Virus record (IMG/VR): IMGVR_UViG_2534681764_000019
Span: 1 to 19,279 of that record
Strand: one strand, 5' to 3'
DNA from: a virus
Taxonomy: Duplodnaviria; Heunggongvirae; Uroviricota; Caudoviricetes
DNA: 19,279 nucleotides
Position numbers and translations under genes: made by a program. Of this stretch, positions 1,391 through 12,670 are shown piece after piece. The notes below the pieces were generated by a model. The model was not told the origin of the DNA. It made no database searches and saw nothing but the letters and a program-made list of their open reading frames with translations. How positions within the stretch are numbered: position 1 is the stretch's first letter; every line of letters begins with the position of its first letter.

Positions 1391-1422
1391 CAGGTCACTA
1401 TCAGTCAAAATAAAATCATTAT
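1391..1422. promoter_or_regulatory. Int arm-type binding sites (P'1-P'3) in the P' arm
   Basis: Tandem CAGGTCACTAT / CAGTCAAAAT / AAATCATTAT motifs matching the arm-type consensus, directly upstream of the int 3' end. Confidence 0.55.
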
Positions 1423-2489
1423 TTGATTTCAATTTTGTCCCACTCCCTGCCTCTGTCATCACGATACTGTGATGCCATGGTGTCCGACTTATGCCCGAGA
1501 AGATGTTGAGCAAACTTATCGCTTATCTGCTTCTCATAGAGTCTTGCAGACAAACTGCGCAACTCGTGAAAGGTAGGCGGATCCCCTTCGAAGGAAAGAC
1601 CTGATGCTTTTCGTGCGCGCATAAAATACCTTGATACTGTGCCGGATGAAAGCGGTTCACGACGAGTAGATGCAATTATGGTTTCTCCGCCAAGAATCTC
1701 TTTGCATTTATCAAGTGTTTCCTTCATTGATATCCCGAGAGCATCAACATGCAATGTTGTTGGGATGGCAATTTTTACGCCTGTTTTGCTTTGCTCGACA
1801 TAAAGATATCCATCTACGATATCAGACCACTTCATTTCGCATAAATCACCAACTCGTTGCCCGGTAACAACAGCCAGTTCCATTGCAAGTCTGAGCCAAC
1901 ATGGTGATGATTCTGCTGCTTGATAAATTTTCAGGTATTCGTCAGCCGTAAGTCTTGATCTCCTTACCTCTGATTTTGCTGCGCGAGTGGCAGCGACAGG
2001 GTTTGTTGTTATATGGCCTTCAGCTATTGCCTCTCGGAATGCATCGCTCAGTGTTGATCTGATTAACTTGGCTGACGCCGCCTTGCCCTCGTCTATGTAT
2101 CCATTGAGCATTGCCGCAATTTCTTTTGTGGTGATGTCTTCAAGTGGAGCATCAGGCAGACCCCTCCTTATTGCTTTAATTTTGCTCATGTAATTTATGA
2201 GTGTCTTCTGCTTGATTCCTCTGCTGGCGAGGATTTTTTCGTAGCGATCAAGCCATGAATGTAACGTAACAGAATTATCACTGTTGATTCTCGCTGTCAG
2301 AGGCTTGTGTTTGTGTCCTGAAAATAACTCAATGTTGGCCTGTATAGCTTCAGTGATTGCTATCCTCCTGTCTCGGCCTAATCCAAACTCTTTACCCGTC
2401 CTTGGGTCCCTGTAGCAGTAATATCCATTGTTTCTTATATAAAGGTTAGGGGGTAAATCCCGGCGCTCATGACTTCTCCTTCTTCCCAT
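1419..2489 (-). CDS. int: Tyrosine integrase (lambda Int)
   Basis: 356-aa ORF MGRRRSHERRDLPPNLYIRNNGYYCYRDPRTGKEFGLGRD..., matches lambda Int in length and sequence as recalled; adjacent to attL. Confidence 0.95.
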   Translation of the reverse strand: MGRRRSHERRDLPPNLYIRNNGYYCYRDPRTGKEFGLGRDRRIAITEAIQANIELFSGHKHKPLTARINSDNSVTLHSWLDRYEKILASRGIKQKTLINYMSKIKAIRRGLPDAPLEDITTKEIAAMLNGYIDEGKAASAKLIRSTLSDAFREAIAEGHITTNPVAATRAAKSEVRRSRLTADEYLKIYQAAESSPCWLRLAMELAVVTGQRVGDLCEMKWSDIVDGYLYVEQSKTGVKIAIPTTLHVDALGISMKETLDKCKEILGGETIIASTRREPLSSGTVSRYFMRARKASGLSFEGDPPTFHELRSLSARLYEKQISDKFAQHLLGHKSDTMASQYRDDRGREWDKIEIK

Positions 2490-9497: not shown

Positions 9498-9824
9498 TCA
9501 AATAAGTGGTTTGCTGCCTAATTTCATTTTCTGGCGACCAACACAAGTCACACCCATTTCACTGCGTGGCTTGCTGTACCATGTGCGCTGATTCTTGCGC
9601 TCAATACGTTGCAGGTTGTTTTCAATCTGTTCGTGGTATTCAGCCAGCACCGTAAGGTCTATCGGATTCAGTGCGCTTTCTACTCGTAATTTCGGTTTGC
9701 GATTCAGCGAGAGAATAGGGCGGTTAACTGGTTTTGCGCTTACCCCAACCAACAGGGGATTTGCTGCTTTCCATTGAGCCTGTTTCTCTGCGCGACGTTC
9801 GCGGCGGCGTGTTTGTGCATCCAT
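9498..9824 (-). CDS. N: Antitermination protein N (lambda-type arginine-rich motif; C-terminus appears divergent)
   Basis: 108-aa ORF MDAQTRRRERRAEKQAQWKAANPLLVGVSAKPVNRPILSLNRKPK...; N-terminal part matches lambda N as recalled; about 200-nt leader containing nutL. Confidence 0.85.
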   Translation of the reverse strand: MDAQTRRRERRAEKQAQWKAANPLLVGVSAKPVNRPILSLNRKPKLRVESALNPIDLTVLAEYHEQIENNLQRIERKNQRTWYSKPRSEMGVTCVGRQKMKLGSKPLI

Positions 9825-10022
9825 CTGGATTCTCCTGTCAGTTAGCTTTGGTGATTGGATGGCCGGCGCTGAACCCCGGCTTACTGGTTAGAGCGCCCGC
9901 ACTACCAGTGACGCTGTCTTGAGGCGCAGATTGGTTACTGCTTGCCATGAGCGCTGTTTATACATTGGTCGAGCATCAGCCTGCTCATTCATCCAATCCC
10001 AAAGCCTTCTGCTTTGAATGCT

Positions 10023-10053
10023 GCCCTTCTTCAGGGCTTAATTTTTAAGAGCC
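10023..10053 (-). promoter_or_regulatory. nutL (boxB hairpin plus boxA-like element)
   Basis: Minus strand reads GCTCTTAAAAATTAAGCCCTGAAGAAGGGCAG; boxB GCCCTGAAGAAGGGC is at 10023-10037. Confidence 0.8.
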
Positions 10054-10092
10054 TCACCTTCATGGTGGTCAGTGCGTCCTGCTGATGCGCTC

Positions 10093-10155
10093 AGTATCAC
10101 CGCCAGTGGTATTTATGTCAACACCGCCAGAGATAATTTATCACCGCAGATGGTT
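10093..10155 (-). promoter_or_regulatory. pL promoter with operators OL1-OL3
   Basis: OL1 TATCACCGCCAGTGGTA (10095-10111), OL2 CAACACCGCCAGAGATA (10119-10135), OL3 TATCACCGCAGATGGTT (10139-10155); minus-strand -35 TTGACA and -10 GATACT. Confidence 0.9.
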
Positions 10156-10311
10156 ATCTGTATGTTTTTTATATAGATTTATTTTTTGCAGGGTTGCGTG
10201 GCTTGGGAGGTGATCGAGAGATCTGAATTGCGATGTTTAGTGAGTTGTATCTATCAATTTTTCAATAAATACAATTTGTTAAGGTGTTGTTAGGTGTGTG
10301 GAGCGAGAGGC

Positions 10312-10337
10312 AAAGAAAACCCGGCACTGGGGCCGGG
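10312..10337 (-). terminator. Intrinsic terminator downstream of the ParA-like gene (tImm analogue)
   Basis: Minus-strand hairpin CCCGGC-cccagt-GCCGGG followed by TTTTCTTT, 10 nt past the stop at 10347-10349. Confidence 0.65.
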
Positions 10338-10346
10338 TTGGTTAAT

Positions 10347-11369
10347 TTATAGTTTAACCACCATCCTATCAATGGCTTCTAAGCAAGATTGTTTATATGG
10401 GGCATTAACTTTTACCCTTCTGTTCATAACTCGTACGCTCCCTGTTGGTAGGATCGAAAATGGACATCCTTTAGCAAAGGCAACAACACCAGTTGTCTGA
10501 AAATCTTTAATATTTACCACTCCCTCTTCAATATTTTCGAAGTCGAAAATTTCAGGGTTACTTAGTAATAGTTGCTGAATATCATTATCGATTGATTTCA
10601 GAACTGCGGCATAGGCTGATGCAGGCCCCATATACTGTGTAAGACGGTTTTTTGCGATCATATGCACTTTGGGTAGTGGTCTGCTCACCGCGGTAAGTTT
10701 GTTTGCAAATGCGTAGGATGCATAAATATCAGATGGCAACTTTAATCCATAAATCAAAGAGAAAGCATTTTGAATGGCGCGACGAGAGGAATCATCAGCC
10801 ATAACTGGCAAGATGAGCTTTTCTACAGCAGCTAATGCTATTTGAGTATAAATTGAAAAACTAGGATTACAGTCAATAAATAAAACATCGTACTCATCAT
10901 TTAGATCTTTAATAAGATCATTAATCCAATCAATGATGCTTACCCATGCATTTGTTCCTGGAATCTGCTGATTAGCAAGAGTGTTGATGGCGTTTGCTTG
11001 AAGCTCAAGAAGCGGGTCACCGCATACCAACGATATATTGGCTGGAATATGTTCGTTGAATTTTTTTGGGTGTGTCAAATAATCGTGGGCATCAACAATG
11101 GGTTTTTGATAAGGCGTCGGGAGGCGCATTTGGAAGTAGCCACCCAAAGTACATCTATTATTTATATCATGCCTAGTCAATAAGTTTATGCTTCCATTAC
11201 CTATTAACCCCCCAAGAAAAAGCTCTGACAAGTTTGCCTGTGGGCACACATCAATAACCAACACGCGCTCAAGCGGGTGAATTTCTGCATATCTGCAAAT
11301 AGCTTGAAATGACAGGCTTGTTTTCCCTGTTCCTCCCTTGTTGTTCCATATAGCATATTTCTTCATCAT
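10347..11369 (-). CDS. ParA/MinD-family P-loop ATPase with about 80-90 aa C-terminal extension, in the position lambda uses for rexA-rexB
   Basis: 340-aa ORF MMKKYAIWNNKGGTGKTSLS...; deviant Walker A KGGTGKT, A' motif VLVIDVCPQANLS, Walker B-like VLFIDCNP; AGGAG RBS 6 nt before the ATG at 11369; an in-frame ATG at 11441 has no RBS. Confidence 0.75.
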   Translation of the reverse strand: MMKKYAIWNNKGGTGKTSLSFQAICRYAEIHPLERVLVIDVCPQANLSELFLGGLIGNGSINLLTRHDINNRCTLGGYFQMRLPTPYQKPIVDAHDYLTHPKKFNEHIPANISLVCGDPLLELQANAINTLANQQIPGTNAWVSIIDWINDLIKDLNDEYDVLFIDCNPSFSIYTQIALAAVEKLILPVMADDSSRRAIQNAFSLIYGLKLPSDIYASYAFANKLTAVSRPLPKVHMIAKNRLTQYMGPASAYAAVLKSIDNDIQQLLLSNPEIFDFENIEEGVVNIKDFQTTGVVAFAKGCPFSILPTGSVRVMNRRVKVNAPYKQSCLEAIDRMVVKL

Positions 11370-11404
11370 AAACTCCTGGTTAACGATGTCATTGCTGGTT
11401 AATG

Positions 11405-11486
11405 TTTTACCATTGGTAAAGTGGTGCACCAAGAGTGACACGGTAAACCAAATAGATCAAGACTTTTGGTAAACGATTTACCAGTG
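11405..11486. promoter_or_regulatory. Operator-like inverted repeats between cI and the ParA-like gene
   Basis: TTTACCA-T-TGGTAAA (11406-11420), GGTGCACC (11422-11429), half-site GGTAAAC (11442-11448), TGGTAAA-CGA-TTTACCA (11466-11482); a minus-strand TTGGTG-17nt-TAAAAC promoter-like element overlaps them. Confidence 0.4.
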
Positions 11487-11537
11487 GTGACATCGATAAC
11501 CGAAAAAGACTGCATTTCTGCAACCTGTTTCACACAA

Positions 11538-12254
<717 letters not shown>

Positions 12255-12261
12255 TTAAATC

Positions 12262-12327
12262 TATCACCGCAAGGGATAAATATCTAACACCGTGCGTGTT
12301 GACTATTTTACCTCTGGCGGTGATAAT
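12262..12327. promoter_or_regulatory. OR3-OR2-OR1 operators with divergent pRM and pR promoters
   Basis: OR3 TATCACCGCAAGGGATA (12262-12278), OR2 TAACACCGTGCGTGTTG (12285-12301), OR1 TACCTCTGGCGGTGATA (12309-12325); pR -35 TTGACT (12299-12304), -10 GATAAT (12322-12327). Confidence 0.9.
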
Positions 12328-12342
12328 GGTTGCATGTACTAA

Positions 12343-12552
<210 letters not shown>

Positions 12553-12559
12553 ATAACCC

Positions 12560-12592
12560 CGCTCTTACACATTCCAGCCCTGAAAAAGGGCA
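12560..12592 (+). promoter_or_regulatory. nutR (boxA CGCTCTTAC and boxB GCCCTGAAAAAGGGC)
   Basis: Both motifs present in order just downstream of cro. Confidence 0.85.
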
Positions 12593-12670
12593 TCAAATTA
12601 AACCACACCTATGGTGTATGCATTTATTTGCATACATTCAATCAATTGTTATCTAAGGAAATACTTACAT

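Follow-up and report, generated by a model that had tools for sequence, protein, structure and literature searches.

Introduction

Several described systems place a ParA-family ATPase downstream of repeated DNA sites. In type Ia partition loci (ParA of P1, SopA of F), the ATPase, which carries an N-terminal helix-turn-helix (HTH) domain of ~100 amino acids (aa), acts on an inverted-repeat operator overlapping its own promoter and represses it. In the omega heptads upstream of delta (ParA) of pSM19035, and in the iteron-type parC/parH sites of type Ib and type II loci, phased short half-sites in direct and inverted orientation overlap the promoter of the ParA gene and act as operators, and are bound by a small protein of the ribbon-helix-helix (RHH) type encoded beside parA. 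In phage lambda, the rexAB genes are co-transcribed with cI from pRM/pRE. GiPD474, a single-gene ParA/Soj-like ATPase of the Gifsy-1 prophage encoded in the immunity region directly downstream of the repressor, confers phage resistance, and membership of its family has been set at an identity of at least 70% (PMC12724215). Here we analyze the repeat array preceding a ParA-like gene in a 19,279-nt stretch of caudoviricete DNA (IMG/VR record IMGVR_UViG_2534681764_000019, called the window below). The array is probably an autoregulatory operator read by the ATPase itself, which would make the gene an insulated moron, largely independent of pRM.

The locus resembles each of these systems in part. 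As in type Ia loci, an inverted-repeat operator candidate overlaps the putative promoter of the ATPase gene, and the ATPase is proposed to act on it as a repressor. The type Ia proteins have their HTH domain at the N-terminus, whereas in the window's ATPase the Walker A motif starts at residue 11, the AlphaFold2 (AF2) model opens with a strand of the ATPase core, and the candidate reading head is a C-terminal beta-hairpin; parB and parS are absent here, the gene is solitary and the element is integrated. With the omega and iteron arrays the locus has in common phased short half-sites, direct and inverted, that overlap the ParA gene promoter and are proposed to serve as operators, but its half-sites have a GTNN core and recur every 9-10 bp, the surroundings are not those of a plasmid, and no small RHH-type partner is conserved among the flanking open reading frames (ORFs) of at least 25 aa. 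The gene lies in the slot that rexAB occupies in lambda, between cI and OL/pL, and like morons it is bracketed by terminators and has a promoter-like element of its own. Unlike rexAB, it is parted from cI by a terminator, and the ATPase has no sequence similarity to Rex proteins.

The GiPD474 family is the closest characterised relative. Both are single genes beside the CI/Cro/CII module of a prophage, but the family member from Klebsiella phage ST11-VIM1phi8.2 is only 33% identical to the window protein over the full length (E = 4e-53), below the membership threshold, and it differs by an N-terminal extension and by GGVGKT in place of GGTGKT, which makes the two sister families. Protein P0138 (361 aa, GGVGKT at residues 29-34) fits the published description of GiPD474. 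No operator array is visible by eye upstream of the GiPD474-type Klebsiella phage member, where a terminator lies ~50 nt before the ATG. Homologues that are distant but full-length (31-37% identity) are found right after the repressor in Klebsiella phage ST11-VIM1phi8.2 and Pseudomonas phage phi297, and another is an oppositely oriented insert inside an integrative and conjugative element (ICE) of E. coli LF82 (L139:2453-3529; L140:2459-3511; L141:2481-3542). None of the three has an operator array upstream that is evident by eye.

Architecture of the repeat array

The first-pass annotation had described, in the 168-bp spacer between the cI stop codon and the ATPase ATG (11370-11537), two inverted repeats with 7-bp arms, a palindrome GGTGCACC and an extra GGTAAAC half-site. 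The spacer length and all of the sequences are correct: TTTACCA-T-TGGTAAA lies at 11406-11420, TGGTAAA-CGA-TTTACCA at 11467-11483, GGTGCACC at 11423-11430 within a palindrome that extends to TGGTGCACCA, and GGTAAAC at 11442-11448. Their grouping has to be revised. A repeat search places the short repeats within an imperfect inverted repeat of 35 nt (11378-11412 versus 11467-11501, 80% complementary), and the repeating element is a 35-bp composite unit consisting of box A (GGTTAACGATGTCAC), 3 bp and box B (TGGTAAA-N3-TTTACCA). Three units, two direct and one inverted (11501-11378), flank and overlap a conserved -35/-10 pair (Table 1). Of the two annotated inverted repeats, the one with a 3-nt spacer is box B of unit 1, whereas the one with a 1-nt spacer is a mere junction, formed where a box-B arm of unit 2 meets one of unit 3. 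The GGTAAAC half-site falls within box A of unit 2. GGTGCACC is not conserved as a palindromic site (Salmonella phage S.Inf 5-2 has TGGTTAACTA) and represents a degenerate box-B arm.

The clustering is not due to chance. The window contains 11 copies of TGGTAAA, where shuffled sequences contain 2.44 +/- 1.58, and four of the 11 crowd into 78 bp (11406-11483). The 15-bp box GGTTAACGATGTCAC is found three times in the spacer at three or fewer mismatches, the 17-bp pattern TGGTWAA-N3-TTWACCA is confined to the spacer in a scan of the window, and the window holds no further copies of the 35-bp unit beyond it. Seven lone TGGTAAA heptamers lie outside the spacer (6142, 6259, 9240, 10513, 11882, 15668 and 19124; 2.4 are expected window-wide). 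None of them is part of a box-B-like palindrome, and they may simply reflect codon usage (GGT AAA).

Each unit can be read as phased GTNN half-sites one helical turn apart, GTTA-N5-GTCA-N6-GTAA-N5-TTAC. Read as 4-mers, the region contains twelve GTNN half-sites in three units, with a period of 9-10 bp that is broken only around the -35. Unit 2 takes up the promoter spacer together with the -10 and the first part of the 5' untranslated region, transcription being predicted to start near 11425, and unit 3 stops one base short of the Shine-Dalgarno sequence. The predicted -35 matches in position the TTGACA/TTTACA of distant family members, and the predicted promoter is homologous to the TTGACA-17-TATAAT of distant relatives. 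The overlap with a promoter-like element noted in the first-pass annotation stands for this conserved -35/-10 pair, but not for the only match of the promoter scan in the spacer: the tool-predicted ATGACA-16-TATGAT (11392-11365) was rejected, since with a -10 that runs into the start codon it is unable to serve the gene. The ATPase gene is bracketed by terminator-like hairpins, as morons are; the cassette has the form of a moron because the second terminator ends the gene and a conserved one precedes the array. A scan of positions 9800-12600 against Rfam gave no match at E <= 1.

Conservation among close relatives

The comparison covered about 200 related loci. Scans of viral, genomic and metagenomic sequences yielded ~23 distinct upstream regions whose proteins are 86-100% identical to that of the window. 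In these close relatives the spacer follows a common plan of terminator hairpin, unit 1, -35, unit 2, inverted unit 3, Shine-Dalgarno sequence and ATG. The distances of the units from the ATG are fixed (-135/-115, -83/-63 and -47), with unit 1 at -135 or -115 and unit 3 at -47 in every member of the clade. Variation among the relatives is distributed unevenly: the arms of box B retain 1.55 and 1.25 bits per position, while the linker and the N3 spacer retain 0.45-0.48 bits. Conserved arms and variable spacers are the pattern expected of protein contacts. Box A served to find the units, and its own conservation score is thereby biased. The degenerate unit 2 of the window is intact in relatives; in L095 it is identical to unit 1, and in Rahnella all three units share one orientation.

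The cassette is kept next to diverse neighbors. In Salmonella phage S.Inf 5-2 the same gene and spacer (86.5% identity) adjoin a different repressor. The hairpin GGTCGCAGARATGCGGCC followed by T5-8 is found at the equivalent place in most clade members, past many different repressor alleles, and the hairpin after cI in the window carries a compensatory change from C-G to T-A. This persistence and the compensatory change argue that the upstream terminator is functional and belongs to the cassette. The first-pass suggestion that the gene is regulated independently of pRM is in line with a conserved terminator hairpin ahead of the array, the evidence for it being comparative. A 3' remnant of lambda cI, GGACTGAAGGGATGTTTGGGTAA (compare ...WPEETFG*), was observed at L002:2185-2225, past a heterologous 236-aa repressor and just before the cassette terminator, and also in L001. 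The remnant in L002 appears to be a footprint of recombination, left where the cassette formerly followed a lambda-type cI.

The ATPase family and its candidate operators

The ATPase contains a deviant Walker A motif (KGGTGKT, residues 11-17) and a C-terminal beta-hairpin (residues 310-321). It matches Pfam AAA_31 (E = 1.1e-16), and its AF2 model (pLDDT 88.8) has a ParA/Soj fold, in which a C-terminal beta-hairpin and a helix are modeled with confidence; the top Foldseek matches are Soj, McdA and ParA at probability 1.0. The deviant Walker A (KGGxxK[ST]) and the Soj-like fold place the protein in the ParA/MinD/Soj superfamily. NCBIfam gave just sub-threshold matches to generic ParA and RepA models, and PADLOC v2 gave no match. 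We found 5338 homologues in Actinomycetota, Proteobacteria, Cyanobacteria, Acidobacteriota and archaeal metagenome-assembled genomes (MAGs), many of them at 63-68% identity. This range of identity spans Enterobacteria, Actinomycetota, Cyanobacteria, Acidobacteriota, Parcubacteria and archaeal MAGs of Woesearchaeota, Micrarchaeia and Methanosarcinales (loci L008-L086), and on these comparisons the family is unusually conserved for a solitary accessory gene. Family members are single genes in chromosomal contigs. Clustering of ORFs of at least 60 aa in 87 loci, and of flanking ORFs of at least 25 aa in 129 loci, revealed no partner gene conserved beyond close relatives. In 80 genomic loci, drawn from many bacterial phyla and some archaeal MAGs, no neighbor of at least 60 aa is conserved. 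Judged from these gene neighborhoods, the ATPase is the sole protein that travels with the cassette. A full-text literature search found no description of this ATPase family or of its operators.

Operator-like palindromes are not restricted to the close relatives. In the 100 bp upstream of distant homologues (63-68% identity), palindromes of the form GTC[CT]-N4-6-[AG]GAC occur 97 times, against 4.8 in shuffled sequences, and concentrate at -100 to -20. Among 91 distinct canonical loci, a GT..-N3-7-..AC palindrome lies within the promoter spacer in 32 and directly past the -10 in 29; the typical distant layout is TTGACA-[nnGTCCAnnnTGGACGn]-TATAAT-GTCCnnnnnGGAC. The spacing is the same as in the window clade: x is 5 in 61 of 68 distant cases of GTCC-Nx-GGAC and in 42 of 54 window-clade cases of GTWA-Nx-TWAC. 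The dinucleotides completing the half-sites differ, with CC 179, CT 59, AC 39, AA 8 and TA 0 occurrences in the distant loci and AA 66, TA 21 and CC 1 in the window clade. As the spacing is alike and the dinucleotide switches cleanly, box B can be regarded as the family operator, altered in specificity from GTCC to GTAA.

Box A has a counterpart as well. In Hafnia and Serratia relatives (74-76% identity), GTGTCCATAATGGAC lies across the -10 and there are also 3 to 11 tandem CGATGTCCA repeats, the Hafnia-type operator being GTCCATAATGGAC, and box A of the window clade (…CGATGTCAC) resembles these tandem repeats. The longest such array, at L247:2615-2700 (the region upstream of L109), comprises eleven copies of the 9-bp half-site CGATGTCCA directly before the ATPase start, where Hafnia has three; it opens an upstream in-frame extension of the ORF (MSTMSTMST...).

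Covariation of the C-terminal hairpin with operator type

Since the operator type changes within the family and no other gene is available as its reader, we examined whether the ATPase covaries with the operator. Seven of the 17 protein positions with the highest mutual information against operator class fall in residues 306-320, at the C-terminal beta-hairpin (p = 1e-6). Residue and half-site counts were obtained from 171 informative distinct loci. K or R at residue 311 is accompanied by C at half-site position 4 in 123 of 139 loci, and a non-basic residue by A there in 30 of 32. H317 is accompanied by C at half-site position 3 in 81 of 85 loci, and R317 by A in 31 of 42. Outside the window clade, GTAC-type operators associate with Q317 (Fisher p = 8e-4).

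The combination of GTAA-type operators at canonical promoter positions with S or T at residue 311 is found in three lineages, none of which is the closest relative of another. These are the window clade, which has GTCC-type neighbors nearest to it (74% identity), the L120/L249-252 group (56% identity) and L121 (54% identity). L314 (N311, GTAA type) might be a fourth, but we count it as weak support only, because its upstream region is very AT-rich and its sites lie outside the canonical promoter positions. The covariation, correlative by nature, is the main support for the ATPase as the candidate reader of the units.

Units outside the cassette

To find units elsewhere, viral contigs were scanned for box A or part of the unit. 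The scan for exact box A gave 96 matches, most of them probably chance occurrences by a rough estimate of the collection size, and only matches with box B adjacent were retained. The full 35-bp unit is present without the ATPase gene in ~12 viral loci. In several lambdoid phages lacking the ATPase it lies in frame inside long ORFs (L144:4957-5010; L206, L165, L194), where it encodes (P)VNDVTxGKxFT, and in L144 the entire box A-box B-box A' palindrome is in frame. These ORFs are DUF551-type or Ea22-like mosaics: one has a DUF551 domain, and others have in common a C-terminal …LPDISSKAFWSG…VEVK module. All copies outside the cassette retain GGTAAA, with zero synonymous variants. On the whole, the observations on these copies suggest conservation at the DNA level or recent spread. 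Captured operator DNA and mosaic joints are possible explanations for the copies, as are genuine targets of the ATPase. Since it is present in phages without the ATPase, the unit has a life of its own beyond the regulatory model proposed here.

Other loci contain the unit together with a cassette-type terminator but no ATPase gene (L190:9564-9760, L198, L157, L247:2398-2560), and from their sequence look like deletion scars. In L247 the scar lies ~300 bp upstream of an intact Hafnia-type cassette, and this locus must therefore have been swapped repeatedly.

Genomic setting

By its ORF and gene content (int, xis, N, OL/pL, the ParA-like gene, cI, OR, cro, cII, O, P and ren), the window is a lambda-like prophage. 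Lambda CI/Cro operators are present at OL and OR, and none is found in the spacer. The 3' end of cI is 96-97% identical to LexA-family (cI) prophage genes in ~1000 of 5426 complete E. coli genomes, and E. coli homology to window positions 11300-11620 breaks off exactly at the cI stop codon. The ATPase cassette was not found in the complete E. coli genomes that carry the matching cI 3' end; the only find in E. coli is a 37%-identical ParA-family gene in the ICE of LF82-like strains, with no evident array. The exact window protein is recorded in 212 blocks of the assembly collection, with lambda-type cI and cro adjoining in all five shown.

Table 1. Positions of the cassette elements and of neighboring prophage features in the window
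Feature	Position	Strand	Sequence or remark
int	1419-2489	-	lambda-like, 356 aa
N	9498-9824	-	
OL/pL	10095-10155		past the terminator of the ATPase gene
Intrinsic terminator, 3' cassette boundary	10318..10339	-	AACCCGGCCCCAGTGCCGGGTT then TTCTTTG; ends the ATPase gene
Solitary ParA/Soj-fold ATPase gene, proposed reader of the units	10347..11369	-	340 aa; ATG at 11369
Shine-Dalgarno sequence	11373..11377	-	AGGAG; from sequence
Unit 3, inverted relative to the gene	11378..11412	+	box A GGTTAACGATGTCAT, TGC, box B TGGTTAA-TGT-TTTACCA
Unit 2, degenerate	11414..11449 (about)	-	box A GGTTTACCGTGTCAC, TCT, then TGGTGCA-CCAC-TTTACCA
Predicted weak -10	11432..11437	-	CACTCT; inside unit 2, 17 bp past the -35; CAYCAT in relatives; from sequence and alignment
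Predicted -35	11455..11460	-	TTGATC; read from sequence; TTGATC/TTGACC kept in the clade
Unit 1	11467..11501	-	box A GGTTATCGATGTCAC, CAC, box B TGGTAAA-TCG-TTTACCA; upstream of the -35
Terminator-like hairpin after cI, 5' cassette boundary	11503..11526 (hairpin 11526-11507)	-	AGGTTGCAGAAATGCAGTCT then TTTT
cI repressor gene	11538..12251	-	237 aa, lambda-immunity type, nearly lambda cI; upstream neighbor, outside the cassette
OR	12262-12325		

Discussion

The anatomy of the array, its conservation, the geometry it has in common with the family-wide GTCC-N5-GGAC operators and the covariation of protein and operator support the reading of the array as an operator of its own gene, and this much of the first-pass proposal of an operator possibly bound by the ATPase is borne out comparatively, although the repeated element is a composite 35-bp unit in three copies. 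We infer that the promoter is active, that the ATPase binds the units and that binding represses transcription. The cassette would then be a single-gene moron in the rexAB position, ordered as terminator, unit 1, -35, unit 2 with the -10, inverted unit 3, Shine-Dalgarno sequence, ATPase gene and terminator. The most likely reader of the units would be the ATPase, acting as a dimer or higher oligomer whose C-terminal beta-hairpins (residues 310-321) would contact half-sites spaced 9 bp from each other. Bound in this way it would mask both the -35/-10 pair and the region transcribed first, and so repress its own weak promoter. With the gene shielded by the terminator after cI against read-through from pRM, its level would be set mainly by autoregulation.

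Several observations weigh against this interpretation. No classical DNA-binding domain was detected in the ATPase by Pfam, in the AF2 model or by Foldseek, and the DNA binding of known ParA proteins that lack an N-terminal HTH is non-specific. Phages without the ATPase gene also have the 35-bp unit, in part as in-frame sequence of ORFs. With CACTCT the predicted -10 is a weak one, and the promoter scan did not report the -35/-10 pair. The covariation is partly confounded by phylogeny, as it comprises three well-supported independent lineages and the weak case of L314, and where residue 317 is Q, K or R it is tied only loosely to half-site type.

The missing DNA-binding domain and the ~12 viral loci that have the unit but no ATPase gene would both be accounted for if the units were operators for a different protein that acts in trans and is encoded outside the cassette, by the host or by the prophage, with the ATPase as regulated cargo. 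We consider this unlikely: the cassette and its operator geometry are kept in hosts as different as Actinomycetota, Cyanobacteria, Acidobacteriota and the DPANN-type archaea represented by MAGs, no further cassette gene, large or small, is conserved, the units persist beside many repressor alleles without matching lambda CI operators, and the operator type follows the hairpin residues of the ATPase. The in-frame copies in DUF551/Ea22-like ORFs (VNDVTxGKxFT) could instead mean that the units are scars of recombination, or modules at mosaic joints, that spread among lambdoid phages by module exchange and have no regulatory role here. The remnants of unit and terminator where the ATPase gene is missing (L190/L198, L157, L247) agree with such an origin, as does the immunity locus being a hot spot of swaps, with the cI remnant past a heterologous repressor in L002. 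Passive scars are nevertheless quite improbable as an explanation, for they would not be expected to keep three phased copies at fixed distances to the -35, -10 and ATG in ~23 diverged relatives, to combine conserved arms with variable spacers, or to have their geometry in common with operators of non-lambdoid family members; the resemblance of box A to the non-coding CGATGTCCA half-sites of the Hafnia-type clade also suggests that the unit originated as an operator.

Two further explanations concern the array as a whole. Its long inverted repeat (11378-11412 versus 11467-11501) might act as an RNA hairpin in cI read-through transcripts, which would occlude the Shine-Dalgarno sequence or make a processing site. 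The read-through RNA is predicted to fold at -48.1 kcal/mol (z = -4.0) with the GGAG of the Shine-Dalgarno sequence paired to a U-tract, and some linker changes look compensatory (S.Inf 5-2, Pectobacterium). Unit 1, however, is at least as similar to the direct unit 2 (26.9 of 35 positions) as to the inverted unit 3 (25.9 of 35), the values at variable positions being 3.0 of 6 versus 2.0 of 6. The hairpin is impossible in Rahnella because all units there have the same orientation, units 1 and 2 of L095 are identical direct repeats, one palindrome of the distant relatives sits in the untranscribed promoter spacer, a terminator precedes the array, and there is no Rfam match. An RNA hairpin was rejected as the primary function on the direct-versus-inverted comparison and the Rahnella orientation, and we hold it to be highly improbable; as a side effect, the hairpin may silence read-through messages. 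The ParA/Soj fold of the ATPase, and the short-repeat arrays upstream of parA that are typical of type Ib and type II partition loci, would also suit a partition centromere (parS/parC-like) used to segregate the element, and centromere-like sites were the other option offered by the first-pass annotation. That option can hardly be maintained and appears exceedingly improbable for an integrating prophage with int and xis, where genes for ParB, ParG and ParR, large or small, are absent, a terminator directly follows the ATPase gene, and the family consists of solitary chromosomal genes in genomes of every kind.

An anti-phage role of the ATPase is plausible from its position and its 33% identity to the GiPD474 family. 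A bolder proposal, which we regard as distinctly unlikely, is that the ATPase is a sequence-specific reader through its C-terminal beta-hairpin, with residues 311 and 317 setting the half-site code, and that it senses or obstructs incoming phage DNA bearing the unit, or is titrated by it. The in-frame copies in DUF551/Ea22-like early genes of lambdoid phages without the ATPase would be such DNA; the array of the gene itself would then have a second function, as set-point or as self-recognition element, in a single-gene anti-phage system.

Comparison of the loci thus brings out two candidate novelties of the proposed autoregulatory operator array: the ParA-family ATPase that would act on this self-operator has an unusual candidate reading head, and it is distributed pan-prokaryotically as a single gene. 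If the ATPase does read its own array, this would be a third way for ParA-family ATPases to meet specific DNA, besides an N-terminal HTH domain and a partner protein of the ParB or RHH type, and it would involve a simple recognition code in which residue 311 corresponds to half-site position 4 and residue 317 to position 3. The cassette would represent a compact, portable and self-regulating gene unit that has spread across bacterial phyla and archaeal MAGs with its operators intact, at 63-68% protein identity. The rexAB slot of a lambda-immunity prophage could then house a gene uncoupled from pRM, and a relative of the newly reported single-gene defence ATPase would gain an operator, candidate specificity residues and candidate target sites.

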